Source: Minisyncoccota bacterium (lineage in GTDB: Bacteria; Patescibacteriota; Minisyncoccia; Phycocordibacterales; Phycocordibacteraceae). From it: 64,000 nt of DNA. The notes under the pieces were generated by a model. It did not search any database and was not told where the DNA came from. It saw only the letters and a program-made list of their open reading frames with translations. This document shows, in pieces, positions 4,204 through 61,082 of the stretch (positions within the stretch are counted from its first letter, which is position 1; each line of letters starts with the position of its first letter). The stretch is from NCBI GenBank assembly GCA_017991635.1, contig JAGOQE010000001.1, positions 65,008 to 129,007 on the forward strand, read 5' to 3'. Position numbers and translations under genes: made by a program.

Positions 4204-4345
4204 AGAAAAAGTAAAAGCGCTGATTGCAACAGCGCGAGATCCACCAAACATGGATTTCGGCCATTGGTACCTAGAACTCCAGAACATCTGGTAGGTACGT
4301 AGCGATAGGGAGACTCTACCGTATAGCCATCTAAAATGCAAGAAG

Positions 4346-4395: not shown

Positions 4396-4899
4396 CTAAT
4401 CGACGAAAAGGACAAGATCTCTTGAGTCAGGCTTTTTCGAGAGTGTGACGAAGGGGTTCGGGAACCTCTGGAGAAGCTCGTACACCTCTTCACGCGAGGC
4501 GAGACCAAGAGCAACGGCAATTCTAAGGCACAGCATCTCGCAGATGTGCGCCGAAGGACCAGAGACCGCAAGCAAAAACTCACCGAGCCTGACCCCTGCC
4601 GCGAATTTGTCCGCATCTTCACCTTCCCTGGCAAGGACAAGGTCCTTGTTATAGGTAAGGCGGTAGATACGCTCCAAACCTCTTCCGTATACGGAATTGG
4701 TGTTCGTGGCCGAATCTCCAAATTCGTGAGAACGCTGCACAGCACCAAAAGAGTCCGAGACAATAACCGTGCCATAGAGCGGTTGCCCATACAGAGCACT
4801 GACCACCTTCGGATGCACTTTGAACGCCTCGACTGCCTGCAACACCACTTGCGGAAGTTTGGCATGCAATTTCGACACTTCAAGAGAACTACTGTTCAT
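4396..4899 (-). CDS. hypothetical protein (167 aa), inserted between rpsJ and rplC
   Basis: ATG within catatg at 4897-4899 with AAGGGG RBS; overlaps upstream ORF by 11 nt; weak HEFGDSATN motif only. Confidence 0.4.
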   Translation of the reverse strand: MNSSSLEVSKLHAKLPQVVLQAVEAFKVHPKVVSALYGQPLYGTVIVSDSFGAVQRSHEFGDSATNTNSVYGRGLERIYRLTYNKDLVLAREGEDADKFAAGVRLGEFLLAVSGPSAHICEMLCLRIAVALGLASREEVYELLQRFPNPFVTLSKKPDSRDLVLFVD

Positions 4900-11600: not shown

Positions 11601-11661
11601 GAGACGTTCTCCGTAAACAACAGTCTAATTCGTACCTTACGCTTTTTTTATTTCACGTCAA

Positions 11662-12767: not shown

Positions 12768-15700
12768 TTAGCTCTGAACGAAGGTGTTTCGTGGGTCCAC
12801 CTTACCATTTTTGAAGCCTATCACCATTTCGAGCTTCTGATTTCTACGCTTCTTTTGAAGTGCCACAAAGGCATATTTCTGGAAATCCTTGTTTTCACAG
12901 GCTGATTTGATGGTTTGGTACGCCTCCCCAGAGACCTCTTCCTGACCTCCAGTTAGGGTAATGCCAAGCATTTGGTCAGGATTGCTCGTTAGTTCAAAAG
13001 AGAGCTCACCCGTAAATGGGCGCCCGTTTCTTCCGAAGACCTCTATTTTATTACCCACTTCATAGGCCAAAAGAGGTGAAAGAAGGCGAATTTCGTTTGT
13101 AATGTTGTTTGGAATGGCTATATTCTCAGGATTTACGGTTCTCGTAAGCCACTTTGTCTCACCCTCCTTAATACCTTCACCAAGACCAACCGTTAGTGGC
13201 ACCTCCCTTCGAGCAGTCATTTCCCCCTCTGGAAGAAGTACTTCCTTTGAGTTGAGCCAGATGTTCACCGCTGCCTGAGTGTCCGGAGCTCTAAAACCAA
13301 TAGCAACAGCGTTTTCCGCTCCGTTTCGAAGCAAGGCATCACGAGGTTCTTTAGGAAGTTGGGAGAGTTTTGCAAGCTGATCGAACTGAGGACGAGACGC
13401 CGTTCCTAGTATGAGGACATTAGGGTCAGTGGAGAGCGTATCAGCAACAGGCACAGCTTTGTTCGTTGGAAGATTGAGTGGCGTTCGTAGCGTTGGTGCA
13501 GTTTCTGCCTTCTTCATGGCATACGCATCAAGAATTGTATCGAGTTCTGAGCGGAACCCAGTCGCCGCGATAACACTGTTTGCGAGAATTGGTTTTCCTT
13601 CCCTATCCCTTATAGGTTGCCCAGCGGTATCAAGAACAACAAGCTGACGGTCCTCAGGTGCCGACTCTAACGTTGCATACCCGACATCAGCCACACGACC
13701 AGGGATTTGTTCAATCAAGTTTCCGCGACCGTTTCGTGGACGAAGGTCGTTAATTTGTGCGTAGCGAGGACGAGCAGAAAGTTCACCCTCAGCAATGACA
13801 TAGATTTTTGTAACATCACGCACGCGTGGGTTGTCTCCTTGAAACACGCTTCCAATGTATTCAATCAGAGTGTCAGCAGAGTTTCCCTTTCCGTAAATTA
13901 CGAGTGTCTCTCCAGGTGAAAGATCTTCGCCACTTCTGTTTGCGAGCGCTTCAAACGCTTCAAGCGTCTGACTAATCTTTGGAAAGCCCTCTGAATCTTT
14001 TGTGTCGCGAATAATTTGTTCTGCTTTAGAGCCTTCAAGTTTGAAACCAAAGCCTGGCTCACCAAGTCCAGTGGACGCGAAGATTGCATCAGTTTTTATT
14101 TTCAGTTGATACCCCTCTTTTCCACCCACCTGAAGTGTTACGATTTTGTCTCCTGCATCTTCTTCGTTTGGATTCGGGTCAACAGAAACAACACGCGTCT
14201 CTAGAGCCAGATTTTTTACAAGCATTGCAGTTTGTAGTGAAAGTACTGATTGCAATTCTTCATTTGTTGGATACCGCGCACTAGAAAGATCATCAGGTGT
14301 TGGCAGATAATCTACGGTCGTATTGATACTTCCCTGACGAATGTCGCCGTTATCTTTTCGCTCTCCCGGGTACCAGCGAAGCGGACTACCGTATGCACGT
14401 ACCGTTTTAATTTCATCTCCATTGGGTTGGTCGGGAAGAGTGGGTGCTCCGTTTCCGCGCTTGTTTGCACTATTCAATTCCCACGCAGCGCCTTTTGGAA
14501 TTGCGAATGGTCCACCAGGTTGTTCACCTGCGTCAACTACAAGAGCATTCTCTGCAAGCGCCGGATTATTTCGCACAAGTTCACCAAAGGCAGCGATGCC
14601 GTTTGGTCCAGTACCAATTTGAAGAAGGGGGATGTAGTCGCCGTCACGAAGATTCGCAAGGGTGTTTTCTGAAAGTGTATCAAAGTGATGACGGAGAAAT
14701 TCATTCGTTGTTCCTGGGTCAGCAGTAATTGCCGCAATAAGGTATGGATTAAAGACTGAGAGAAGTTCAACGGACTCCAAGTACGCGCGTTCGGTATCAG
14801 TGAGTGGACGCTGTTCTTCAAATGCACTCACGCGCTGTTCAAATTTTCTTCGAGGACTCACCACCTCTCCATTCATCTTTGTTGGCCTATCAAGTACAGA
14901 TGCGACATCGTCTGCAGTAGTACCATCAGCACGAAGTGATTCCACAAGCGGAAATACCGTTTCAATAAATCGCTCGCGCATATAATTAAATGCTCGTTTA
15001 TTCCTTCCTAACTCAGGACACGCGAAACGCTCTTTGAGTCCTTGAATTTCTCGCTCACGAATCTCTCCTGCAAAACGCTCATCAAATATTTCAGGACGAT
15101 TACCCGCCACATAACTTCGGTACAGAGTGAAGAGTTCTCGTCGTATCGCTTGGTCCTCTGCAGTCTCTCCTGGGAAATTATCAATCTCCGCGAGTATTGT
15201 GTCGGGTGAGCCAGTTGCGAAACTTTCTCGGAGTACAGTCGCACGTTCAATACGTCTGAAATTTTGAATGTCTTGGATATCTTGTGATACGCGCTCACGA
15301 ATTTCATTCACCGCATTCACATAATCAAACTCTCCAAACGAAGGACGAAGTGGAATAGTATCTAAATAAAGACGCAGGTCATCTTCAGTTGCGTCGAGCT
15401 TCACCAAATCTTGTGCACCCTTACTAAAGTCAGCGAGCTCGGCCTTGTATGCAGTGTTCACCAAGACAGCGCCGGCCTGTCTGTCCTTATCATCTCCCGA
15501 GCGAAGAAGCTCGCCAGCACTTGCAAGGACTGCTTCAATATTTCTGCTTTGTGGCGGGAGACTCTTTACTGCCTCTCGCACAATATTTTCACGGCGTTTT
15601 GCGCGAAGCACATCTTGAAGTTCACCAACAACTTCAAGACCTTCAAGATTTCCTTGCTCGAATGTAGCGAGAAGTGGTGCAAGCTCTTCAGGTTTTCTGC

Positions 15701-16820
15701 CTTCTGCAAGTCCTCCGTATATCTCCTTTCGCAAGTTTGCGCTTCGCTTTTCTGCATCAAGTTCTTTCAGGAGAGAGACAACTTCTGTTCGCAGTTCTTC
15801 TGAAGAAGACATCGCCATCACTGCTTCCATGCGCTCAACCATCCCCGAATTTTGGGTGAGCGCTCCCCTGATACTTGTTTTAACTTCGTCTGGAACCTTA
15901 GGATTATCCAGTATCTTTGTGATTCTTTTGATTATTGTCCCTTGCGCTGATGAGAGAGTTCCTCCTTCTGTAACTCTTTTGGTTAGTATTTCTTGTCGTA
16001 ACCCAAATTTTATAGCGTAACCATTTAATCTGTAGATACCACTGCTTTCGTCAATGGTTAAGTTCGGATTTGTGAATGCATTCACAACTCTCTCATCCAA
16101 ATCTCCAGAAAGAATGCCTTTTGTAACGAAATTAATTCCTGCAATTTGTGACTCCGCATTCGCTTTGCCACCTTCCAATAGTGCCTTGGACTTTGCAATC
16201 TCACGAAGCAGTAAAGATTGCTCCTTCGTTATGACCCCACCGCCGGTCACTCTTGTAGTTAGAACCTCCTCGCGTGGTCCATATTTGATGGCGTAGCCAT
16301 TCAACCTATAGATGCCATTATCCCCTTCTGTAGTTATGTTTGGGTTAGCAAGTGCGTTGATTACTTTTTCATCAAAATCTCCAGTAACGGCTTTATTAAA
16401 AACGCTCTGAAAGCCAACAGTTTCATTGTCTGAACTACTCTTCTTTAGATTCTCTCTTGTGGCGTCAACAGAGAGGCGGGCAAGTATCCTTGCGTTCTCT
16501 TTCGTGAGAACACCTCCGCCGGTCACTCTTGTAGTTAGAACCTCCTCGCGTGGTCCATATTTGATGGCGTAGCCATTCAACCTATAGATGCCATTGCCTT
16601 CATCTATTTTCAGATTTGGATTTGCGAGTGCATTGATTACTCGTTCTTCTAAAATACCCGTTGACGCTTTCCCAAAAACGAATTTAAACCCATTCACCTC
16701 AGCGCGGTCTTGCTCCACGCTTTTGAGCGGACTCTCCACCGCGCCTTCGGCGCGGTCATTCACTCCCTCTTTAGGCGCCTTCGGGCGAAATGCTCGCTCC
16801 ATATATATGCAGTATCGCAC
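12768..16820 (-). CDS. giant protein (1350 aa): N-terminal tandem repeats plus embedded two-dinucleotide-binding flavoprotein-like core
   Basis: Three ~92-aa repeats (GIYRLNGYAIKYGPREEVLTTRVTGGG); later LLQIGTGPNGIAAF (GxGxxG), LVIYGKGNSADTLIEY (GxGxxA), VIAATGF (ATG motif), as in N-hydroxylating monooxygenase or pyridine-nucleotide-disulfide oxidoreductase folds. Confidence 0.7.
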   Translation of the reverse strand: MRYCIYMERAFRPKAPKEGVNDRAEGAVESPLKSVEQDRAEVNGFKFVFGKASTGILEERVINALANPNLKIDEGNGIYRLNGYAIKYGPREEVLTTRVTGGGVLTKENARILARLSVDATRENLKKSSSDNETVGFQSVFNKAVTGDFDEKVINALANPNITTEGDNGIYRLNGYAIKYGPREEVLTTRVTGGGVITKEQSLLLREIAKSKALLEGGKANAESQIAGINFVTKGILSGDLDERVVNAFTNPNLTIDESSGIYRLNGYAIKFGLRQEILTKRVTEGGTLSSAQGTIIKRITKILDNPKVPDEVKTSIRGALTQNSGMVERMEAVMAMSSSEELRTEVVSLLKELDAEKRSANLRKEIYGGLAEGRKPEELAPLLATFEQGNLEGLEVVGELQDVLRAKRRENIVREAVKSLPPQSRNIEAVLASAGELLRSGDDKDRQAGAVLVNTAYKAELADFSKGAQDLVKLDATEDDLRLYLDTIPLRPSFGEFDYVNAVNEIRERVSQDIQDIQNFRRIERATVLRESFATGSPDTILAEIDNFPGETAEDQAIRRELFTLYRSYVAGNRPEIFDERFAGEIREREIQGLKERFACPELGRNKRAFNYMRERFIETVFPLVESLRADGTTADDVASVLDRPTKMNGEVVSPRRKFEQRVSAFEEQRPLTDTERAYLESVELLSVFNPYLIAAITADPGTTNEFLRHHFDTLSENTLANLRDGDYIPLLQIGTGPNGIAAFGELVRNNPALAENALVVDAGEQPGGPFAIPKGAAWELNSANKRGNGAPTLPDQPNGDEIKTVRAYGSPLRWYPGERKDNGDIRQGSINTTVDYLPTPDDLSSARYPTNEELQSVLSLQTAMLVKNLALETRVVSVDPNPNEEDAGDKIVTLQVGGKEGYQLKIKTDAIFASTGLGEPGFGFKLEGSKAEQIIRDTKDSEGFPKISQTLEAFEALANRSGEDLSPGETLVIYGKGNSADTLIEYIGSVFQGDNPRVRDVTKIYVIAEGELSARPRYAQINDLRPRNGRGNLIEQIPGRVADVGYATLESAPEDRQLVVLDTAGQPIRDREGKPILANSVIAATGFRSELDTILDAYAMKKAETAPTLRTPLNLPTNKAVPVADTLSTDPNVLILGTASRPQFDQLAKLSQLPKEPRDALLRNGAENAVAIGFRAPDTQAAVNIWLNSKEVLLPEGEMTARREVPLTVGLGEGIKEGETKWLTRTVNPENIAIPNNITNEIRLLSPLLAYEVGNKIEVFGRNGRPFTGELSFELTSNPDQMLGITLTGGQEEVSGEAYQTIKSACENKDFQKYAFVALQKKRRNQKLEMVIGFKNGKVDPRNTFVQS
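15940..16770 (-). repeat. in-frame tandem repeats (~276-bp unit, 3 copies) in the 5' part of the giant gene
   Basis: 83-bp stretches at 16240-16322 and 16516-16598 are identical, offset 276 bp; a third copy near 15960-16040 is diverged. Confidence 0.65.
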
Positions 16821-22862: not shown

Positions 22863-24845
22863 TTACTCCCCCGACGTACGCCGGCGCGAGCGCGGAGCGT
22901 CAGCCGCGTCGTCACCACCATCATCCGTTTCCGGAGTGACGGCGGGTTCGGACGCGACCGAAGCGGGTTCCGCGGCCTTCGGGGTTTCAGGCGTGGCCGA
23001 AGCCGAAGTGCCATCACCCTGTTTGCCCTTGCGGTCGCCAGCCATCATGTTGCCGAGGAAGGCGTCGACCATGCCGCCACCGCCCGAACCGTTGCCATTT
23101 GCGGCGCCGGTGACGAGGATGTCGGGCACAATCTTGATGCCGTTCTTCGACAGGTGGTCGGCGATCGTCATCATCGCATAGCCTTCGGCGCCGACGCTTT
23201 CGACCTTCTGCTTGATGACGTTGGCTTCAGCGCCACCGACAGCGAGCGTATTGGCCGCTTGAGCTTCACCCACGGTCTTGAGGACCATGGCGTCGGCCGT
23301 AGCGTTGATTTCCTTCGACTGAGCGACACCCTTCGCGTTGGCGACGGCGGCGTTGGCCTCGAAGGTCTGGATCTCGACCTGACGTTCCGCCGCGACCACC
23401 TGGGCCTGCGTATCGGCAGTAGCCCGGGCGTTCTCCAGGTCTTTACGAGCGTCTTCTGCGCTCTTCTGAGCCCTGTACGTATCCATCATGCGCTCGGCGA
23501 GTTTCTTCTCCGAGAGCGTGGCCATCAGTTCAGGCGGAGGCACGATGTCACCGATGAGGGTGTCGACGGCTTGCACATCGTAGTTGCCCTGAAGACCTTC
23601 TTCGATGTGCGTCTTCGCGTCCTTCTGGCGTTCAGCGCGTTTCGACAGGAACTCGATGGCGTCATGCGCTTGCGCGGAGTTCCGGAAGTAGTTCCCGATG
23701 AGGGGTTCCAGAACCTGACTGACCAGATTGAGCATCGAACCGAAGCGTGCGATGACGGCCGAAGCCTTGTCGCGCGAGACGTGGATGATCTGACTCACGT
23801 CGAGGTTATAGGTGAAGCCGTCGGACGAACGGGCCGTAATGGTCGAGAGGTGCGAGTCGAGGTCGTGAGACGCCGTCTTACCATTCGCCCAGTTCAGCAC
23901 AATGTTCGTCGTCGGAACGAGCTCGACCTTCGTCGTCAACGGGTTGATGGGGTACATGCCCGGATCCAGAGGATCCTTCCACACACCCTTTTGACCACGA
24001 TCAACGAGTTTGCCGTGCTTGAACGCTTCTCCGGTGCCGGTGACATTTTCACCGACATAGGACACCACAACACCGACCGAGCCGATGGGTACGGCAGTCA
24101 TCGGCACCGATTCAACAGCGACGAAGAGCGGATTCAGGTAGTAGGTGCCGGCCAGAATGACCTCTTCCTGCTGACCTTTGAAACCGCCACCGCGCACGAA
24201 GGCGTCGCCGTCCTGGAAGGAGTTGTGACCATCGATTTTCTTGCCGGCGATCTCGCCGGCAAGAAGCGCTTGGCCTTCCTTCGTGGTAACGACGCCGACC
24301 GTGTTGTCGGGAATCGAAATGGCTTTTTCAAGCCTGACAGCAAACAACTTGGTGTTGATACGGTACACACCCGGCGGGATGATGGCGATTTGCGAACCGC
24401 GCTCACCACCGTTGGTGAGGAAGGCACGCGCATCCTGGAAGGAGTCGCAGTTAACGCTTTGCGCGAGAATACGACCAGCCGGAATGGCGTTACCGTCCTG
24501 AGCCTCGACGATGCCCACCTGCCCTTGCGGGATGGTGGTGAATTTCGTGATGGTGACCGTGTACTGCCACGGCCATTTCCAGAAATGCAGGCCGGGCGCG
24601 AGCGCGTCAGCCTGCAGACCAGCTTCGCCCTGGAGGGCGACGATACGGCCGTCGGGCAAGGTCTTGTTCTTACCGAACAGGACGAACTTCTTCTCGACGA
24701 GACCAATGGAGTCTTCGGGGATAAACCAGATGCCGAAGAGACGGAACCACCACTTGGCCGTGAAGCCGAGCACGATGAGCACAATGAGGCTCCCGAGCAC
24801 CGGCGACGCGATCAAGCCACCGAGAAATCCAAGGATTCCTTCCAT
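22863..24845 (-). CDS. flotillin-like SPFH/band-7 protein (YqiK-like)
   Basis: N-terminal TM, SPFH domain, long Ala/Glu-rich coiled coil, Gly-rich tail; start set at MEGILGFLGG (GAAAGG RBS); gene is visibly very GC-rich. Confidence 0.8.
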   Translation of the reverse strand: MEGILGFLGGLIASPVLGSLIVLIVLGFTAKWWFRLFGIWFIPEDSIGLVEKKFVLFGKNKTLPDGRIVALQGEAGLQADALAPGLHFWKWPWQYTVTITKFTTIPQGQVGIVEAQDGNAIPAGRILAQSVNCDSFQDARAFLTNGGERGSQIAIIPPGVYRINTKLFAVRLEKAISIPDNTVGVVTTKEGQALLAGEIAGKKIDGHNSFQDGDAFVRGGGFKGQQEEVILAGTYYLNPLFVAVESVPMTAVPIGSVGVVVSYVGENVTGTGEAFKHGKLVDRGQKGVWKDPLDPGMYPINPLTTKVELVPTTNIVLNWANGKTASHDLDSHLSTITARSSDGFTYNLDVSQIIHVSRDKASAVIARFGSMLNLVSQVLEPLIGNYFRNSAQAHDAIEFLSKRAERQKDAKTHIEEGLQGNYDVQAVDTLIGDIVPPPELMATLSEKKLAERMMDTYRAQKSAEDARKDLENARATADTQAQVVAAERQVEIQTFEANAAVANAKGVAQSKEINATADAMVLKTVGEAQAANTLAVGGAEANVIKQKVESVGAEGYAMMTIADHLSKNGIKIVPDILVTGAANGNGSGGGGMVDAFLGNMMAGDRKGKQGDGTSASATPETPKAAEPASVASEPAVTPETDDGGDDAADAPRSRRRTSGE

Positions 24846-24948
24846 GGGATTGTAGCCTTTCTGTAACGAGCAACGGGACGAATTCCCGTGCATCCGGAGC
24901 ATAACAACATTTTATTGTCACAAAGTCAACACTATAGTGAAACCCCGC

Positions 24949-49026: not shown

Positions 49027-49547
49027 TGGTTAGCAAGCAGAGCAAGAAAAAGAAGGTTGAAGCTCCGGCTCCCGACCGCAACCCTGAGGCCGACATCTTT
49101 GTCGTCCTCAGCTACGAGATTCTTCGTGGTGACGGCAAGGGTGGACAATATCCCTTTCTTCACGCTGTTTGGAGCGGTTTCAACACCGCTTTCAAGCGTG
49201 TCTTCGAGGGAACGAACCCTGTCGACTACATGCAGATGCTCGCCGCCGAGAAACTGATTGAGCTCCGCCCCTTCAAGGGCGGCGTCACGATCAAGCCTCT
49301 CCCGCCCATGCTGAAGAAGCTCTCGCCCGACGAGCAGGCCATCTCGGCTCGCCTTCGCGTCTATCTCAACGATTTCCACGATGAGTGGGCCGAAGAGAAG
49401 AAGCGCCGTGCTGCCGCGAAGGAAGCCGCCAAGCTGGCGCTCCCGCCCAAGCCTGAAGCTCCCAAGCCCACCGCTGCCGAAACGGCTGCTGGCAAGCTCT
49501 GGGCCAAGGGTGATACGGCGAAGGCCCTCGACAAGCTCGGCTACTAG
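49027..49547 (+). CDS. hypothetical protein on GC-rich, GC3-biased DNA
   Basis: AGGAAGG RBS; codon usage clearly different from neighbouring hup and rny. Confidence 0.4.
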
Positions 49548-49609
49548 AGCGCGATGTCGCCCGAGGAGAGTGAACTCTCTCCTCGGGCGCTCGAAATCGG
49601 GAGAACACC

Positions 49610-49765
49610 ATGAAACGAAGGGGCACCGAACTCTGTCTCGAAGCGAAACGGCTCATCGCTGAAATTCGCAAACGGACTGAAGAAGGTCTTCTCATCATCA
49701 AGGAGGCGAAAGAACACCTCAAACAACATGCGCGGCCAAGGCCAATTGCATCGAACGACCCATAG
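49610..49765 (+). CDS. small basic ORF (51 aa); its 3' end lies inside direct repeat 1
   Basis: GGGAGA RBS; MKRRGTELCLEAKRLIAEIRKRTEEGLLIIKEAKEHLKQHARPRPIASNDP; translated by hand, too short for the ORF track. Confidence 0.25.
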   Translation: MKRRGTELCLEAKRLIAEIRKRTEEGLLIIKEAKEHLKQHARPRPIASNDP

Positions 49766-49791
49766 CTCACGCGGGGTCGTTTTGCTTTATA
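49749..49791 (+). repeat. 43-bp direct repeat, copy 1
   Basis: catcgaacgacccatagctcacgcggggtcgttttgctttata; identical to 52463-52505; contains a small hairpin plus T-run. Confidence 0.8.
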
Positions 49792-49814
49792 TATGATAAA
49801 AGACGTAACTTTCG

Positions 49815-50009
49815 TTACGTCTCCCTCCTAATTGAAATCCAAATCGCGGCAGCGCCAACGAAGAGAGCGATAGTGCCCCCCTCCCACATCCCTTCAGGGT
49901 ATCTCTTCCCTGCCTCCATGAGGAAGTACGCTCGGAACATGCCGGACGCCCCCATAAAGGTCAGAAACGAGCCGAGTAGAAAGAGGCCAATCCGATTGAG
50001 TTTATCCAT
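49815..50009 (-). CDS. small membrane protein (64 aa)
   Basis: Two hydrophobic helices. Confidence 0.3.
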   Translation of the reverse strand: MDKLNRIGLFLLGSFLTFMGASGMFRAYFLMEAGKRYPEGMWEGGTIALFVGAAAIWISIRRET

Positions 50010-50030
50010 GAAAGAGCGTCCCTTGTGAGC

Positions 50031-50213
50031 TCACGACGTGATTGTCCCGAGTCTCAATAAGAGGGGTAAGTCGTGTCGTTCGTGATCGTACTTACCCTGT
50101 TTGAGTTTCGCCTTCACGCATTTGCGAGTGTGCAGTTTCTTTTTGTCTGCGACTACTCGCTGGTGAAGCGACGGCGACCGAAGCGCTTTCGCAATCGGAT
50201 TTCTATTCTTCAT
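50031..50213 (-). CDS. small basic protein with ArfA-like (alternative ribosome-rescue factor) motif
   Basis: AKALRSPSLHQRVVADKKK resembles E. coli ArfA [20 protein letters not shown]; 4-nt overlap with the upstream gene. Confidence 0.3.
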   Translation of the reverse strand: MKNRNPIAKALRSPSLHQRVVADKKKLHTRKCVKAKLKQGKYDHERHDLPLLLRLGTITS

Positions 50214-50810
50214 GACTTTTCCTTTCTTGAGGAGACGGGAATCCTGCCGGCTTTAACGTCTTCAAGGAAATCCCTAAAGGCAAGACGTGCGGTATTTACT
50301 GCAGCGCGGACACCCTTTGGAACCTTGCAGAAATACACGTACCTTGAGGAAGTGGTGTATTTCTTCAGACGCTCAGCCGACTCTCGAAGATCTGCCTCAA
50401 GCTTTTGAAGCTTGCAGGCATCCGAAATTGGTCTCGTAGAGTCTGGCGCGTAAAGCGCTGGAATCACGAGCATATTTGCTAGCTCTGCGAGTCTCTCGAG
50501 GTCTCGGAACACAGCGAAGGTTGTTTGAAACGGTGTATCTTCATACAGCATGAGTAGCTTCCCTATCAGCCCACGAACCATTTCACGGGCTGAATAGAGT
50601 GGGTAAGCTTGTGACTTACCCTCCGCACCACCGATCGAGAAACTCGTCGGCCGCCTCCGGGGAGACATTGCGCGCGAGGTAAAGCGCGTGTGCGAGAGCC
50701 TCTTTATCGGAGAGGCGTCCGGCCGGCCGGGGCGGGGTGAGGGGTTTGAAACCCTCGGTCCACGAATGGACACCTACGACTCGGCCCGTAGGATTTTTTA
50801 TAATATGCAT
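50210..50810 (-). pseudogene. frameshifted gene (about 200 aa if restored), hypothetical
   Basis: ORF 50616..50810 (protein-like) ends at GGAGGGTAA; ORF 50210..50773 continues in the +1 frame from the same region and its own N-terminus is Pro/Arg-rich junk. Confidence 0.35.
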
Positions 50811-51114
50811 GGTGTTTCTCCTGTTGCACCTTGAAATCGTTTCTTTCTTTGACCTCTGTCAGGCCACATCACAAAGACGACTCTACGCAACAGAAGAGAG
50901 TCCTGAACGTTACGTGTGGGCACTAATCCACACGTAACGTTCTTTTGCAGATTTGAGAGGTGGATCATGACTCCACATCCTACTCACTGCCTAGCACGGA
51001 TCTTGCTAGTAAGCTCTGTCAGTCCGCAAATTGCTTTCCGGACTGAATAGAGAGGAGGACATTGCCAGTGTCCTCCTTGGTGATTTCTGTTGCCAGGTTC
51101 ACCAACCCCGAATC

Positions 51115-51480
51115 CTATTCAAACGCGCCGATGAAGCCGAGATGGCGGAAGATTTGCGTCTTCCTCACACCTCCCTGCCCGTCCGGTTCCTCGACACTCA
51201 CCCGTTGGGCGAATGCGTGGTCCGGTTGGACTTCCGACCTCATGAGCACTCTCTCGAGTGGACTCATGAAGAACGGAGCTCCCCCGATCATGGCGCGAGA
51301 TGCGCCATGCCGCTTGGCGACTTCCGCAAGAGCACGAGCCCTCGCGAAAACCTCCTCACGGGTGGGCAGGGTGTCGAACGTCAGCAGGCGCTGAACGTCC
51401 GACTTGTCCGCAGGCTCAAACACGCCGGCGGCGATTTGATCGGCCGTGGCAGCATGCTGCGTCAGGTTGAGAATGTTCAT
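51115..51480 (-). CDS. hypothetical protein (121 aa), GC-rich
   Basis: ORF; the long opposite-strand ORF 51031..51519 is judged a GC artefact. Confidence 0.4.
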   Translation of the reverse strand: MNILNLTQHAATADQIAAGVFEPADKSDVQRLLTFDTLPTREEVFARARALAEVAKRHGASRAMIGGAPFFMSPLERVLMRSEVQPDHAFAQRVSVEEPDGQGGVRKTQIFRHLGFIGAFE

Positions 51481-51645
51481 GTCTTATGCCTCTTTGGCGT
51501 TGACTTCCTATGTATATAATAGCACAATTCAGGACTGTGTCAATCACTGTAATTGTAATCTGACACTGTTTGAGTTACTTTTTATGTCATGTGTGCTATA
51601 TTTTAAAAGTATTTCTGCTTGCCTCTCCATTTTGTAAACAACTTC

Positions 51646-55438: not shown

Positions 55439-55596
55439 GGCTTTTACTATTGTGGCGTATTTACTAGGTATTTTACAGACAGAAGGTGTGTACTACCCAT
55501 AAAGACACGTCCTTTATCCCCACTACCCCCAGGGTTGTCCACAGTTATTCACACGTTGACCGAGAGGAGTTTTTGGGAGGATTGGCGGACAGGCAG

Positions 55597-55817
55597 GAGA
55601 GGATAGGGAGAAGTTCCCGATTTCTAACTCGCTACGCTCGTAACAAATCTAGGTCACGCATCGGTCACCCGATTTGTTCGTCGTCACTCACAAACCGCTC
55701 GACGCCGGGAAACGGTTTTGCTTGCTAGCAAAACAGCCGTTTCCCTTTCGCACCCCTCCGGGTATTCCGATGCATCATTCTCCACGGACAGTGCGCAGGC
55801 ACTGTCCTCTATCCGCA
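55597..55817 (-). ncRNA. tRNA-acceptor-mimicking structured element E2 (about 220 nt), homologous to E1
   Basis: Minus strand begins TGCGGATAGA then GGACAGTGC-CTGC-GCACTGTCC-GTGGAGAAT (as E1); ends ...GAGTTAGAAATCGGGAACTTCTCCCTATCC; termini match tRNA-Gly(GCC) acceptor strands. Confidence 0.35.
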
Positions 55818-55833
55818 CACGATTTTTAACGCA

Positions 55834-55857
55834 AAAGAGCGCTTTCGCGCTCTTTTG
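55834..55857. terminator. hairpin between tRNA-Gly(GCC) and E2
   Basis: aaaagagcgctttcgcgctctttt. Confidence 0.55.
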
Positions 55858-55867
55858 CTGAATCGTG

Positions 55868-56294: not shown

Positions 56295-57758
56295 ATGAAA
56301 TTTGAGGTGCCTATCGAAGTTAAAACAGTGTCTGAAGCACTCCGCCGTGAAGGCTTTGACGCCTATCTAGTTGGGGGCTGTGTGCGCGACCTCCTTATCG
56401 GAAGAGCTCCCAAGGATTGGGATGTGACCACAAACGCCAAGCCAGAAGATATTCAGAGAATCTTCCCTGATTCCTTCTATGAGAATGATTTTGGCACTGT
56501 AGGCGTCAAAACTGGCTCAGAAGACGCGAAACTTGCCATAGTTGAGGTAACACCCTACCGAACTGAAACTGGGTACTCAGACAAGCGCAGGCCGGATAGT
56601 GTTTCCTTTGGAGAATCCCTTGAAGAAGATCTTGCCCGAAGAGACTTCACTATTAACGCCATTGCCTACGATGAGTCTAAAGGACAATTAGTAGACCCTT
56701 ATAAAGGACAAAAGGACATTGAGCACAAAGTGTTGAGAACTGTAGGTTCCCCTACCCTACGCTTTGAGGAGGACGCGCTTCGACTCATGCGCGCAGTGCG
56801 TCTTGTTGCTGAACTTAGTTTTGCCCTTGATGCTGAGACTGCAGCGGGGATTCAAGAGAAAGCATCTAACTTGAGCCATGTTTCACGTGAAAGAGTTCGT
56901 GACGAGCTGGTGCGTATCTTGAACTCCAAGGAGCCAATGGCTTCCCTCACCCTAGCTCAGCAGTTGGGACTCTTGGTCTACATATCTCCTGAACTTCCTC
57001 GTGGTATCGGAATTGAGCAAAACCAGGCTCACAGCTTTGACGTATTTGGGCACCTCATGCGTTCTCTTCAGCACGCTGCGGATAAGGATTGGCCTTTTGA
57101 AATTCGCCTTGCCGCTCTATTTCACGACATTTCTAAGCCTGAAACACGTAGATGGGCGCCAGAGAAGAATGACTGGACATTTCATGGCCACGAAGTAGTT
57201 GGAGCTAGAGTGACCCGCAAAGCTCTAGAGGACCTTAAGTTTTCACGTGAAACTATTGAGAGAGTGAGCAAACTAGTGCGCTGGCACATGTTTTTCTCTG
57301 ATCCAGACCAAATCACCCTTTCAGCGGTGCGTAGGATGATTCAAAATGTTGGCGAGGAAAACATTTGGGACCTTCTAAACCTCCGTATTTGTGACCGAAT
57401 TGGCACAGGACGTCCAAAGGAACAGCCGTTTCGCTTTAGAAAGTACAAAGCAATGGTGGAACAAGCGCTTAGAGACCCTATTTCCGTACAAATGCTCAAT
57501 ACCGATGGCTCACGCATCATGGAGCAGTTTCATGTGAAACCAGGACCTCGATTGGGCTGGACTCTCAACGCCCTCTTGGAAGAAGTTCTAGAGGACCCCA
57601 GAAAGAACACTATTGACTGGCTGGACGAACGAACCAAGGAGCTTCTTGAACTTTCGGATGAGGAACTTAAGGAACTTGGAGATTCTGGAAGAAAAAAGAA
57701 GGAAGAGGCGGAAGAGGCGGAAATAAAGAAGATACTTAGTAAACACAACGTTGTATAA
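56295..57758 (+). CDS. cca: CCA-adding tRNA nucleotidyltransferase with HD domain
   Basis: LVGGCVRDLLIGRAPKDWDVTT...RRDFTINAIA head domain; HD motif LAALFHDISKP. Confidence 0.85.
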   Translation: MKFEVPIEVKTVSEALRREGFDAYLVGGCVRDLLIGRAPKDWDVTTNAKPEDIQRIFPDSFYENDFGTVGVKTGSEDAKLAIVEVTPYRTETGYSDKRRPDSVSFGESLEEDLARRDFTINAIAYDESKGQLVDPYKGQKDIEHKVLRTVGSPTLRFEEDALRLMRAVRLVAELSFALDAETAAGIQEKASNLSHVSRERVRDELVRILNSKEPMASLTLAQQLGLLVYISPELPRGIGIEQNQAHSFDVFGHLMRSLQHAADKDWPFEIRLAALFHDISKPETRRWAPEKNDWTFHGHEVVGARVTRKALEDLKFSRETIERVSKLVRWHMFFSDPDQITLSAVRRMIQNVGEENIWDLLNLRICDRIGTGRPKEQPFRFRKYKAMVEQALRDPISVQMLNTDGSRIMEQFHVKPGPRLGWTLNALLEEVLEDPRKNTIDWLDERTKELLELSDEELKELGDSGRKKKEEAEEAEIKKILSKHNVV

Positions 57759-57778
57759 GAAAGGCCCCAAAAGGGGCT

Positions 57779-58026
57779 TTTCACGTGAAACACGCCTAAA
57801 ATGGCTTATTTGCTTACTTATAGATGTTTCACATGAAACGATCAGGTATTTGTTGTTCCACATGAAACAATAAATACGGCCTATAATATGAGTTTCACGT
57901 GAAAAGTATTAAAAAACCGCCTAGACGGGTATTTTGGAAAGCGGAAAAGGGAGCGAGGGCAAATGTTGGTGCTTTCCAGGAGAAATTTCGTCCTGGCGGT
58001 TTTTATGTGGCGTTTCGCATGAAACT
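57779..58026. repeat. array of 5 palindromic 12-mers TTTCAC(G/A)TGAAA in a convergent intergenic region
   Basis: Copies at 57779-57791 (perfect), 57827-57840, 57856-57869, 57893-57906 (perfect), 58013-58026; two further perfect copies inside cca at 56880-56893 and 57239-57253. Confidence 0.7.
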
Positions 58027-58271
58027 ATTCCGACCCCTCGTATGTTTGTTGGGGATACGCCCCGATTTCGTAGGGCGGGATAGTAAGGAATGCTAGACGC
58101 GAATGATGTGAAAGAGCAAGAAAGAGCTTCGTTTTCGAACTCCAGTGGAGACCCTCTCCCGAGTACTTCTCCCTGGTCTCTACGTATAGTACTCCCTCTA
58201 GGACAAGCGTAAAGGACACTATGTGGATAAGTGTCCTTTACGCTTGTCCTATATATTCTAAGCCTTTTATT

Positions 58272-59036
58272 CTAAAGCGTTATGGAAATGGGGCAGTGGT
58301 CGGAGCCAAAAATGTCGCTGTGGATATCTACCTTCTTAACTTTCTTTGCAAGATCCTGAGACACAAAAACGTAGTCAATACGCCATCCCACGTTACGGTC
58401 ACGCGCCTTAGTGAACAAATCCCAGTAAGTATAGGCGTCTTTTCTTAGAGGGTAGGCGTTACGCCACGTATCCACGTAGCCTTGGGCCACCACTTCATCG
58501 AGCCAAGCACGCTCCTCAGGCAGGAATCCTGTTGTTTTCTCATTCTCTTTTGGTCGTGCCAAATCTATTTCTTCATGTGCCGTGTTTACATCACCCATGA
58601 AGATTACGGGCTTTGTTTTCCTTAGCTTTTCACAATACTCAAGAAAGGCATCATAGAAACGCATCTTGTAATCAAGCCGGTGCGGACCTTGGCCACCGTT
58701 AGGGAAGTACACGTTCAAAAGCCAAAAATCCTCATATTCTGCGCCAATTATGCGCCCTTCATCGTCAAATTCGGGTATACCAATACCGTATATAACCTTT
58801 AGCGGTTCAATCTTTGAGTAGAGAGCGACACCGCTGTATCCTTTCTTTATTTTGCAGGGATTAAAAAAGGCACTGTATCCCGGAACATTCACCACATCTT
58901 CGGGAAGCTGGTCGGGCTCTGCCTTAATTTCCTGAAGCCCAAATATGTCAGGCTTTACGCCAAGGAGAAACTCTTTCCAGTAGCCGTTCTTTGCAGTGGC
59001 GCGCAAACCATTGGTGTTCCACGACACGATTTTCAT
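58272..59036 (-). CDS. xth: exodeoxyribonuclease III
   Basis: MKIVSWNTNGLRA...QEIK...MGDVNTAHEEIDL...SDHCPI. Confidence 0.9.
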   Translation of the reverse strand: MKIVSWNTNGLRATAKNGYWKEFLLGVKPDIFGLQEIKAEPDQLPEDVVNVPGYSAFFNPCKIKKGYSGVALYSKIEPLKVIYGIGIPEFDDEGRIIGAEYEDFWLLNVYFPNGGQGPHRLDYKMRFYDAFLEYCEKLRKTKPVIFMGDVNTAHEEIDLARPKENEKTTGFLPEERAWLDEVVAQGYVDTWRNAYPLRKDAYTYWDLFTKARDRNVGWRIDYVFVSQDLAKKVKKVDIHSDIFGSDHCPISITL

Positions 59037-59555: not shown

Positions 59556-60110
59556 ATGTACCGAAGAGGCTTTACCTTGGTAGAACTTCTGATTGTAATC
59601 GCAATAATTGGCATACTCTCTTCCGTAGTGATGAGTTCGCTTAACTCTGCGCGCGCCAAAGCGCGCGACGCAAGCAGAGTTGCCTCTATTCAAGAAATGC
59701 AAAAGGCACTTGAAAACTACTACCTTGATAACGGCAGGTATCCTGGCGCAACTCTCGGAAGCTATGCAAAAACAATAGACACCCCAAACGGAGGGGAGTG
59801 TGGGTACCAGAATAACTGGTGTAACTTAGAGACAGCCCTCGCACCATACATTCGCTCCATTCCAAGAGATAACCTCGGAGGACCTGCAATGGAGGGTCGC
59901 TTTTTATACAAATCGAACAGCCCGTATTCAATGTATGCTCTTAGCGTGACTTTGGAGCAACAAAGTAATGCCAGTATTAATGACGGGGGATATTTTCCGA
60001 CTTTATACGAAGTTGGTTCACTCCCTCGATACTGCACTCAGACCTATACAGGCACAGGAGCTAACTGGAACACATGGAACGGTGCTTTGAACTGTGTCGG
60101 AGGAAACTAA
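59556..60110 (+). CDS. type IV pilin (prepilin-type N-terminal cleavage/methylation domain)
   Basis: MYRRGFTLVELLIVIAIIGILSSVV class-III signal; Cys-containing C-terminus. Confidence 0.75.
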   Translation: MYRRGFTLVELLIVIAIIGILSSVVMSSLNSARAKARDASRVASIQEMQKALENYYLDNGRYPGATLGSYAKTIDTPNGGECGYQNNWCNLETALAPYIRSIPRDNLGGPAMEGRFLYKSNSPYSMYALSVTLEQQSNASINDGGYFPTLYEVGSLPRYCTQTYTGTGANWNTWNGALNCVGGN

Positions 60111-61003
60111 GTTCGCTTTGAGTGAAATTTTTTGTGCACCTCACGTAAATGTGAGTCAGTAACATGCGTATAAATCTGAGTTGTATTAATAGAAGCGTGC
60201 CCTAAAAGAGCTTGCACAGAGCGAATATCTGCGCCATTTGAAAGTAGGTCAGTCGCAAATGAGTGCCGAAGTACGTGCGGTGTGACTTTTTTGGTTATGC
60301 CAGCTTTTGCTGAGTAGATTTTAATCATGCGCTCCACTGAGCGGGGAGTGATGCGCTCGTTCTTCTTTTTCCCTTGCGCATGATTCACGAACAGTGCCTC
60401 GTGCATATCCTTGCGCGCCTTGAGATACGCTCGCACAGCATCCTTTGCGGCGTCTGAAATAAACACCACACGTACTTTGTCACCCTTACCGCGCACAGAA
60501 AGCTCGTCTCGGGAGAGGTCTATATCACTATCAAGTCCACACAATTCTGAAACACGCAGACCTGTGGAGAATAATAATTCCAGAATGGCTCTGTCTCGCA
60601 ACGCCTTTTCGCTTGCACCATCTGCAGCCTTCATGAGCCTGTCGAGTTCTGCATCATTAATAAGATCAAGAGAGCGCTCAGGCACTTTTGCAAGTTCAAT
60701 CTTTTCAGGAGAGAGTCCCGGAATGTCGCGCTTCCTTAGGAACTTAAGAAAGGCACGCATTGCAATCAAGTAATAGTTTTGTGTGCGACGTTTGAGCGTA
60801 TCTTTTCCTGTTCCTGGCTGACGGTTAAGCCATAGACGAAATTCGCGAATTTTCTCTTCGGTAATTTGATTTGTGTCAGCTATCGCGGCCCATTGAAAAA
60901 AACGTGTGAGGTACCGGTCGTAGTTCTCAATAGTTTTAACCGCACGGCCTCGTTCAATTTCAGTATGCTCGAGAAATTGACGCTTAGCATCTTCAACCTT
61001 CAT
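60107..61003 (-). CDS. tyrosine site-specific recombinase (XerC/XerD family)
   Basis: HVLRHSFATDLLSNGADIRSVQALLGHASINTTQIYTHV; Arg-His-Arg-Tyr catalytic region; ORF start is GTG at 61030, ATG at 61003 chosen. Confidence 0.8.
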   Translation of the reverse strand: MKVEDAKRQFLEHTEIERGRAVKTIENYDRYLTRFFQWAAIADTNQITEEKIREFRLWLNRQPGTGKDTLKRRTQNYYLIAMRAFLKFLRKRDIPGLSPEKIELAKVPERSLDLINDAELDRLMKAADGASEKALRDRAILELLFSTGLRVSELCGLDSDIDLSRDELSVRGKGDKVRVVFISDAAKDAVRAYLKARKDMHEALFVNHAQGKKKNERITPRSVERMIKIYSAKAGITKKVTPHVLRHSFATDLLSNGADIRSVQALLGHASINTTQIYTHVTDSHLREVHKKFHSKRT

Positions 61004-61082
61004 ACAAATAGTGTAGCACTGGCGTCGCACAATATATGAAGACGATATTTACTTGAGTAGGGAACTGTTACAATGCGGATAT

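Follow-up and report, generated by a model that had tools for sequence, protein, structure and literature searches.

Why should a chromosome carry the same short palindrome several times over within about a kilobase, partly inside a coding sequence? The question is raised by a 64,000-nucleotide stretch of a Minisyncoccota bacterium genome (contig JAGOQE010000001.1 of assembly GCA_017991635.1, positions 65,008 to 129,007; hereafter the window), in which a cluster of palindromes begins inside cca and continues into the spacer that separates it from the convergent gene xth (Table 1). In their sequence, their distribution, their position and the selection on them, the palindromes belong to the parS family, and as such they are a textbook element. 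The cluster as a whole is very probably a chromosomal parS array, a dense centromere of eight sites in 1.15 kb to which ParB, an HTH protein with a CTP-binding GERRxR domain, would bind.

The 12-mer TTTCACGTGAAA has, at up to one mismatch, seven matches in the window against 0.39 expected, and none of 100 shuffled sequences reached seven. Six of these matches fall between 56881 and 57904, namely four perfect copies (56881, 57241, 57779 and 57893) and two with a single mismatch (57528, TTTCATGTGAAA; 57827, TTTCACATGAAA). The seventh is a stray single-mismatch copy at 11651 (TTTCACGTCAAA), consistent with chance. Two further copies in the spacer, at 57856 (TTCCACATGAAA) and 58013 (TTTCGCATGAAA), have two mismatches. 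In its 16-bp context, the repeat TGTTTCACGTGAAACA gives eight matches in the window at up to three mismatches, against 0.49 expected from shuffles; seven of the eight lie within 56879-57906 (1.03 kb) and a single one, at chance level, in the other 63 kb. In total the array comprises three sites inside cca (56879, 57239 and 57526) and five in the 514-bp spacer, with between one and four mismatches to the parS consensus.

A first-pass annotation of this DNA had reported seven perfect or single-mismatch copies in 56880-58026. The cluster is real and, as that annotation maintained, far beyond chance, but the interval holds six such copies plus the two with two mismatches. All five of the spacer copies it counted are recognisable sites, two of them (57856 and 58013) at two mismatches and not one, and of the spacings it gave (47, 29, 37 and 120 bp) the first is 48 bp and the others stand. 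The two perfect in-gene copies in one codon phase are present as described (GTT TCA CGT GAA, V-S-R-E, and TTT TCA CGT GAA, F-S-R-E); the third, at 57528, is in another codon phase (F-H-V-K) and had not been listed as in-gene. The copy at 11651 contradicts the statement that none occurs elsewhere in the 64 kb. Pfam upholds the assignment of cca and xth as a convergent pair.

Canonical chromosomal parS is "mainly TGTTNCACGTGAAACA" (PMC7022226). To compare the sites across species we fetched relatives via the Cca protein (71-81% identity) and kept 80 species-level loci of 560 confirmed Cca relatives, all of them metagenome-assembled genomes (MAGs) of Patescibacteria/Parcubacteria (Paceibacterota). 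The logo built from 319 sites in these relatives is tGTTTCACGTGAAACa, the canonical bacterial chromosomal parS. The parS-like 16-mers occupy the same cca codon positions in the relatives (-876, -555, -516 and -229 from the stop) and the spacer, and hardly any lie in the other ~20 kb of each locus: cca plus 500 bp, 157 kb in all, holds 319 sites and the 1.19 Mb of flanks 3, a ~690-fold difference in density. With a degenerate consensus, none of the 80 relatives lacks a site, and 77 have two or more (median 5, maximum 10). In the DNA examined, that is the 64-kb window and the relatives' flanks, the sites are confined to this one region.

This distribution bears on the simplest alternative, a generic dispersed repeat (an uptake sequence, or a repetitive extragenic palindromic (REP) or miniature inverted-repeat transposable element (MITE)), a restriction-modification footprint at CACGTG, chance or an assembly artefact. 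The repetition itself speaks for such an origin, and nothing more. Uptake signal sequences and REPs have hundreds to thousands of dispersed copies; these and MITEs are ruled out by the concentration of sites at this locus, which also disposes of the earlier suggestion of an uptake-like repeat. The codon positions of the sites are fixed across species, and the shuffles expect only 0.39-0.49 matches. Since two independent assemblies (Logan SRR11088468 and GCA_020047435.1) carry identical sites, the array is not an assembly artefact, a possibility that the first-pass annotation had raised against itself; the exact Cca protein was found only on two short metagenome contigs. Within the available data this group of explanations is already refuted, and we give it practically no credence.

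Why are some of the sites in cca? The gene hosts three parS sites plus two to three copies of another short motif, the 9-mer TAAAGGACA described below. A synonymous-entropy scan over a codon alignment of 81 cca genes gave 386 informative columns with a median entropy ratio of 0.94. The ratio fell below 0.45 in only 13 columns, of which five are on in-gene parS sites (codons 197-198, 304, 317 and 414) and a further five on TAAAGGACA copies. Of the rest, codon 485 adjoins the stop codon, at which a parS site is present in relatives, and codons 281 and 334 have no motif assigned. The three in-gene sites keep their positions in the relatives, parS-1 at -876 from the cca stop (codons 197-198, under extreme synonymous constraint), parS-2 at -516 and parS-3 at -229. 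Codon choice at these places departs strongly from the cca baseline: TCA encodes Ser197 in 84% and Ser317 in 97% of genes (baseline 18%), CGT encodes Arg198 in 96% (24%), GAA encodes Glu199 and Glu319 in 90% (46%), and GTG encodes Val414 in 100% (26%).

A natural control is provided by a distant lineage, L120/L200, whose Cca is 61% identical and which encodes I-S-R-E-R as ATT TCG CGT GAG CGC, without a palindrome. Because this lineage keeps the peptide without the palindrome, the constraint on the in-gene sites acts on DNA. The in-gene parS copies are therefore not a mere consequence of the protein sequence; they are under DNA-level selection. The locus is a clean example of predicted protein-binding DNA sites being kept in a coding sequence by synonymous-codon selection. 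Lying inside invariant peptide motifs of the essential cca gene, such sites would be hard to lose.

The same constraint could in principle act on RNA, with the palindromes forming mRNA or small-RNA hairpins or terminators. The palindromes can fold, one of them abuts a terminator-like hairpin that follows cca at 57764-57777, and the spacer holds structured elements (A and B, below). A loopless 16-bp palindrome, however, gives only a weak, A/U-rich 5-bp stem, and the same bases recur in 80 species without covariation, the opposite of what elements A and B display. On both counts an RNA-level explanation is very improbable.

A more serious alternative is that a dimeric transcription factor distinct from ParB uses the palindromes as an array of operators, acting on spacer transcripts, on cca or on xth. 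The sites are palindromic and partly intergenic, a gene for a TrmB/MarR-like helix-turn-helix (HTH) protein lies 4 kb upstream, and parS-6 and parS-7 bracket a perfect TATAAT hexamer (57882-57887, just upstream of parS-7), so that their occupancy would probably affect transcription. However, the consensus is base for base that of universal parS, and three sites are buried in coding sequence, with no promoter region closer than 230-880 bp, and yet are under DNA-level selection. Moreover, no second protein is needed for a regulatory side-effect, since ParB can by itself repress promoters nearby. Altogether we consider a non-ParB operator unlikely. The first-pass annotation had listed among its options an array for a dimeric HTH regulator, which is loosely right in that ParB is a dimeric HTH protein, but the likeness it saw to CRP/Rex sites fails. 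CRP/FNR/Rex sites consist of inverted half-sites TGTGA/TTGTGAA with a 4-6 bp spacer; here the TTTCAC/GTGAAA half-sites abut without a spacer and in the opposite order, and a CRP/FNR/Rex-type operator was rejected.

Several observations weigh against identifying the array as chromosomal parS. Several sites differ from the consensus at 3-4 positions, mostly at the outer bases. No ParB, ParA, SMC or DnaA gene was detected by Pfam among the ~59 open reading frames (ORFs) of the window, with a permissive rescan of nine unassigned ORFs and the UPF0102 ORF included; dnaN was not seen in the window either, and a PDB sequence search with the two ParB-sized ORFs of the window gave no ParB, ParA, SMC or DnaA. 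Likewise, tblastn, run on 82 and then 120 loci, found none of these four within 10 kb of cca in the 80 relatives or in metagenome loci. The searchable literature is silent on ParB or parS in Patescibacteria; we found in it no relevant work on oriC or chromosome segregation in the candidate phyla radiation (CPR)/Patescibacteria, and Nelson & Stegen 2015 make no mention of ParB or DnaA.

If the array is chromosomal parS, as we think very probable, ParB dimers, acting as a CTP-dependent clamp, would recognise each 16-bp parS through their HTH domains (ParABS reviewed in PMC7022226). The CTP-bound clamps would close round the DNA and then slide onto flanking DNA, and loading sites spaced so closely would give rise to one dense partition complex that covers the origin region. 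This complex would mark the origin-proximal region for ParA segregation and/or SMC loading.

Does the array in fact lie at an origin? Motifs and composition suggest that it probably does. Eight of the 12 TTATCCACA-like 9-mers in the window fall within 55.5-60.6 kb, including a triplet at 55514-55553 upstream of cca, and the only perfect DnaA box in the window, TTATCCACA itself, lies at 58222-58230 in minus orientation. The upstream composite that contains the triplet is kept in the relatives as TGTCCTTTATCCCCA-N12-TTGTCCACA-g-TTATnCACA. Compared with the far flanks of the relatives, TTATCCACA at up to one mismatch is enriched 14.5-fold in the spacer and 6.4-fold over the 2.5 kb that precede cca; for 25 permuted 9-mers of the same composition the mean was 1.2-fold and the maximum 3.1. 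Perfect boxes in the relatives number 27 in the spacers (47 kb), 7 upstream and 3 in the far flanks (943 kb), and the spacer and upstream clusters are oppositely oriented. AT-rich DNA lies beside the upstream box cluster in the relatives and round parS-4 to parS-7 in the window; no DnaA-trio pattern was recognised and no DNA unwinding element was identified at the locus.

GC skew, which the first-pass annotation had proposed as a means of excluding an origin, instead points to one. At four-fold sites and corrected for orientation, its value is -0.056 left of the locus and +0.091 right of it, with right above left in 29 of 29 usable relatives, and AT skew flips in 24 of the 29. Since the polarity is negative on the left and positive on the right, the skew indicates an origin and not a terminus. 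We also scanned metagenomes for the 15-mer TGTCCTTTATCCCCA. Most matches were due to chance. Of 11 loci with a cca homolog, the complete composite or both, ten have cca next to the matched 15-mer and one is not long enough to judge; dnaA and parB adjoin the match in none of them, which fits a single locus rather than a DnaA regulon.

Other points count against an origin at this place. The window's own right arm, which is too short, does not have positive skew (-0.23 rising to -0.03), conserved synteny could bias the skew test across relatives, and the origin is read from composition and motifs only. In addition, dnaA is not adjacent (none in the window, none within 10 kb in the relatives), which is atypical (PMC4285127).

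With a probable origin at hand, the palindromes could themselves be origin iterons bound by a Rep-like or DnaA-like initiator, and the DnaA boxes and the skew switch would suit this. Canonical DnaA boxes are present separately, however, with a different sequence, and the palindromes are inverted and not direct repeats, at irregular spacing (48, 29, 37, 120 and 251-360 bp). The replicon is a chromosome with ribosomal and translation genes and not a plasmid. The L120 lineage, furthermore, keeps the frame of DnaA boxes and 9-mers with its palindromes elsewhere: two perfect TTTCACGTGAAA cores (L120, reverse-complemented, 4317-4332 and 4584-4599; also in L200) lie 160-430 bp from the upstream DnaA-box cluster and not in cca. 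Since the palindromes there stand by the upstream boxes while the frame is retained, the two modules, centromere and origin, are linked, yet they can be separated and are mobile in evolution; as judged from the sequences compared, the palindromes have moved within the putative origin region during evolution. We therefore regard iterons as highly unlikely. Where the first-pass annotation had offered a replication or partition locus made of iteron-like sites, partition was right and a link to replication is probable, by way of the flanking DnaA boxes and not of the palindromes.

Table 1. Predicted parS sites, putative origin elements and bounding genes in the window.
Feature	Coordinates	Strand	Sequence or structure	Location and remarks
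Upstream composite	55508..55553	+	cGTCCTTTA fused to DnaA box TTATCCCCA, then TTGTCCACA and TTATTCACA	three co-oriented boxes at 0/+21/+31
cca	56295..57758	+		CCA-adding tRNA nucleotidyltransferase with HD domain; Pfam PolyA_pol, PolyA_pol_RNAbd, HD
TAAAGGACA in-gene copies	56678..56718	+	copies at 56678 and 56702, 1-mismatch copy at 56710	encode S-K-G-Q / Y-K-G-Q-K-D
parS-1	56879..56894		TGTTTCACGTGAAAGA	inside cca, codons H-V-S-R-E-R; 1 mismatch to TGTTTCACGTGAAACA
parS-2	57239..57254		GTTTTCACGTGAAACT	inside cca, K-F-S-R-E-T; perfect 12-bp core
parS-3	57526..57541		AGTTTCATGTGAAACC	inside cca, Q-F-H-V-K-P; 12-mer and 16-mer matches
parS-4	57777..57792		CTTTTCACGTGAAACA	spacer, fused to T-tract of cca terminator hairpin
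parS-5	57825..57840		TGTTTCACATGAAACG	spacer; 2 mismatches
parS-6	57854..57869		TGTTCCACATGAAACA	spacer; 2 mismatches to symmetric consensus, 1 to B. subtilis-type TGTTCCACGTGAAACA
parS-7	57891..57906		AGTTTCACGTGAAAAG	spacer; perfect 12-bp core
Element A	57916..58000		hairpin P1 CCGCC/GGCGG, P2 GGAAAGC/GCTTTCC, loop GGGAGCGAGGGC...TGG	A-tract before, T-tract after
parS-8 (weakest)	58011..58026		CGTTTCGCATGAAACT	between elements A and B; 4 mismatches
Element B	58027..58200		hairpin GGGG-ATAC-GCCCC (58048-58060), linear blocks GAAAGAGC...GAAAGAGC, TAnnnT hexamer (TATAGT) before element C	noncoding block
Element C	58201..58250		perfect hairpin/inverted repeat GGACAAGCGTAAAGGACAC-tatGTGGATAAg-TGTCCTTTACGCTTGTCC	two inverted TAAAGGACA flank perfect DnaA box
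xth	58272..59036	-		exodeoxyribonuclease III family; Pfam Exo_endo_phos; convergent with cca, bounds 514-bp spacer

The 9-mer TAAAGGACA accompanies the DnaA boxes on both sides of cca in a fixed, mirrored orientation and overlaps upstream box 1. Five perfect copies occur in the window against 0.52 expected, all of them between 55.2 and 58.3 kb, and in cca the 9-mer accounts for codons 128-130, 139 and 141 among the 13 most synonymously constrained of the 386 columns. GTAAAGGACA, from element C, is present in 67 of 75 spacers. The 9-mer differs from TTATCCACA at 4 of 9 positions, and a literature probe for it returned only noise and no match. By the nearest analogy, TAAAGGACA is a candidate site for an origin-binding regulator.

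The arrangement of two DnaA-box clusters on either side of this block suggests a bipartite oriC whose two parts are separated by tRNA genes and cca. On that reading the centromere and the origin would form one physical unit. It is possible, and we put it forward tentatively, that origin, centromere and a housekeeping gene are fused in a ~3-kb module unlinked to dnaA and parAB, with ParB and TAAAGGACA sites in the codons of cca and a new structured RNA or hairpin among the parS sites.

Several observations concern the surroundings of the putative origin. An inverted duplication of the two noncoding regions that flank the tRNA/cca block was considered and dropped, since alignment scores were within the shuffle range and only short motifs are shared. 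A dif/Xer site at element C was also rejected: the element does not look like dif, and the skew has the polarity expected at an origin and not at a terminus. A gene for a XerC/D-type tyrosine recombinase lies at 60107-61030, 2 kb from the putative origin; no site like dif was recognised. Positions 55560-55866, which lie between the DnaA-box triplet and tRNA-Gly, are GC-rich, noncoding and contain strong hairpins (e.g. gggaaacggttttgcttgctagcaaaacagccgtttccc and aaaagagcgctttcgcgctctttt), which may be a small RNA or terminators. Two metagenome loci, L130 and L191, have ~2.8-4 kb of extra DNA between cca and xth with more DnaA-box-like 9-mers, which may be a spacer insertion. In general the convergent cca/xth pair is well kept (75 of 81 genomes), with a spacer of 312-988 bp.

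Apart from the palindromes and the DnaA box, the spacer contains two structured elements. In element A, helix P1 is 94.3% paired in the relatives with compensatory changes at 4 of its 7 pairs; none of 500 shuffles reached its score, and slid controls collapse. Helix P2 occurs as 57 distinct helix sequences in 75 genomes, reaches at least 7 bp in 71% of genomes vs 22% with shuffled flanks, and encloses a conserved loop, AAAwGGAGCnGGGGC...GAUGG. The loop is purine-rich; on the minus strand it is pyrimidine-rich, with an anti-Shine-Dalgarno-like CUCC. RNAalifold on raw MAFFT alignments of the element gave no structure, owing to register shifts, and the element was tested instead by the P1 pair count and by alignment-free helix tests. 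As to strand, z-scores of -2.05 (plus) and -3.55 (minus) and the balance of wobble pairs lean towards minus; G·U pairs by themselves had pointed to plus, a reading that a symmetric test and these z-scores did not bear out. Element A may be a small RNA, a 3' untranslated region element or an elaborate bidirectional terminator. The small RNA that the first-pass annotation had suspected in the intergenic block thus gains support from this ~85-nt hairpin and its compensatory changes, with no match in Rfam.

The hairpin of element B also covaries, one pair being G-C in 28 sequences and A-U in 22 in the alignments, and the element contains AAAGA(G/A)C repeats that do not vary. With element A it may make up one longer RNA; alternatively, it may be origin DNA. 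The position of parS-8, between the two elements, also holds a site in relatives, usually gcGCTTTCACGTGGAAC. Rfam gave no match to elements A-C at gathering thresholds in the window and only noise at E<=10 in 57600-58400; in the loci of 8 relatives, at E<=0.01, it returned only tRNAs. RNase P, signal recognition particle, 6S RNA or tmRNA in the spacer had no Rfam or ARAGORN support.

Three other regions of the window stand out by composition or content. The most G+C-rich part (22863-24902; 0.586 vs ~0.48) encodes a 679-aa SPFH/Band-7 protein and has a long antisense ORF; such a composition points to foreign DNA or to an unusual region of low complexity. Positions 49100-51600 have raised G+C (0.53-0.54), only overlapping ORFs without Pfam matches, no Rfam match and no conservation in relatives, and are probably a strain-variable island. 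At 12768-16820, a 1350-aa ORF without a Pfam domain stands beside a 1025-aa beta-helix/lipase-like protein; both are probably large surface proteins typical of CPR bacteria.

What does the locus offer? CPR bacteria are uncultivated, and cis-elements that can be read from sequence are therefore among the few handles on them. The parS sites and DnaA boxes at cca are a conserved landmark for orienting and checking MAG assemblies, the locus can anchor coverage-based (peak-to-trough) estimates of growth rate, and it gives defined DNA for assaying the ParB and DnaA of these lineages as recombinant proteins. Judged by the searchable literature, the occurrence in a CPR lineage, the density of the array and its embedding in cca are new, as are the dnaA-distal, apparently bipartite origin, the 9-mer TAAAGGACA and the spacer hairpin. 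Should the fused module prove true, it would be the first such origin/centromere architecture to be described in any CPR bacterium, and would show clearly how a protein code and a cis-element code can overlap and be kept across many species.

How does the locus compare with known systems? Chromosomal parS elsewhere (the B. subtilis Spo0J sites, TGTTCCACGTGAAACA, and the clusters of Caulobacter, Streptomyces and Myxococcus) is the same 16-bp palindrome, likewise multi-copy and origin-proximal, with some copies in genes. Known parS clusters are spread over roughly 5-200 kb. Copy number varies between species from 2 to 22 (PMC7022226). The present array, in contrast, is much denser and lies away from parAB and dnaA, and three of its sites are held in cca by synonymous-codon selection across a family-level clade, with ParB as the predicted partner. 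Plasmid centromeres (F sopC, R1 parC and P1 parS) and the Noc-binding sites (NBS, ATTTCCCGGGAAAT) are likewise short sites packed into dense arrays, on which a ParB-family or partition complex nucleates, but they differ in sequence, whereas the present sites match chromosomal parS and the replicon is a chromosome.

As for the putative origin, a bipartite oriC has two DnaA-box clusters split by a spacer gene, usually dnaA (PMC4285127). With those of B. subtilis, Mollicutes and H. pylori the candidate origin shares two clusters and a spacer gene, with boxes at up to two mismatches from TTATCCACA (PMC4285127). It differs from them in that the spacer consists of tRNA genes plus cca (~2.7 kb in the window, variable in relatives), and that the spacer gene and the adjoining DNA would also carry the centromere. 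Finally, TAAAGGACA overlaps or abuts DnaA boxes as do the sites of known origin regulators (the 0A-boxes of Spo0A, CtrA, MtrA, HP1021 and AdpA; PMC4285127), but its sequence matches no Spo0A, CtrA, MtrA, HP1021 or AdpA site, and copies of it are also kept in cca under synonymous constraint.

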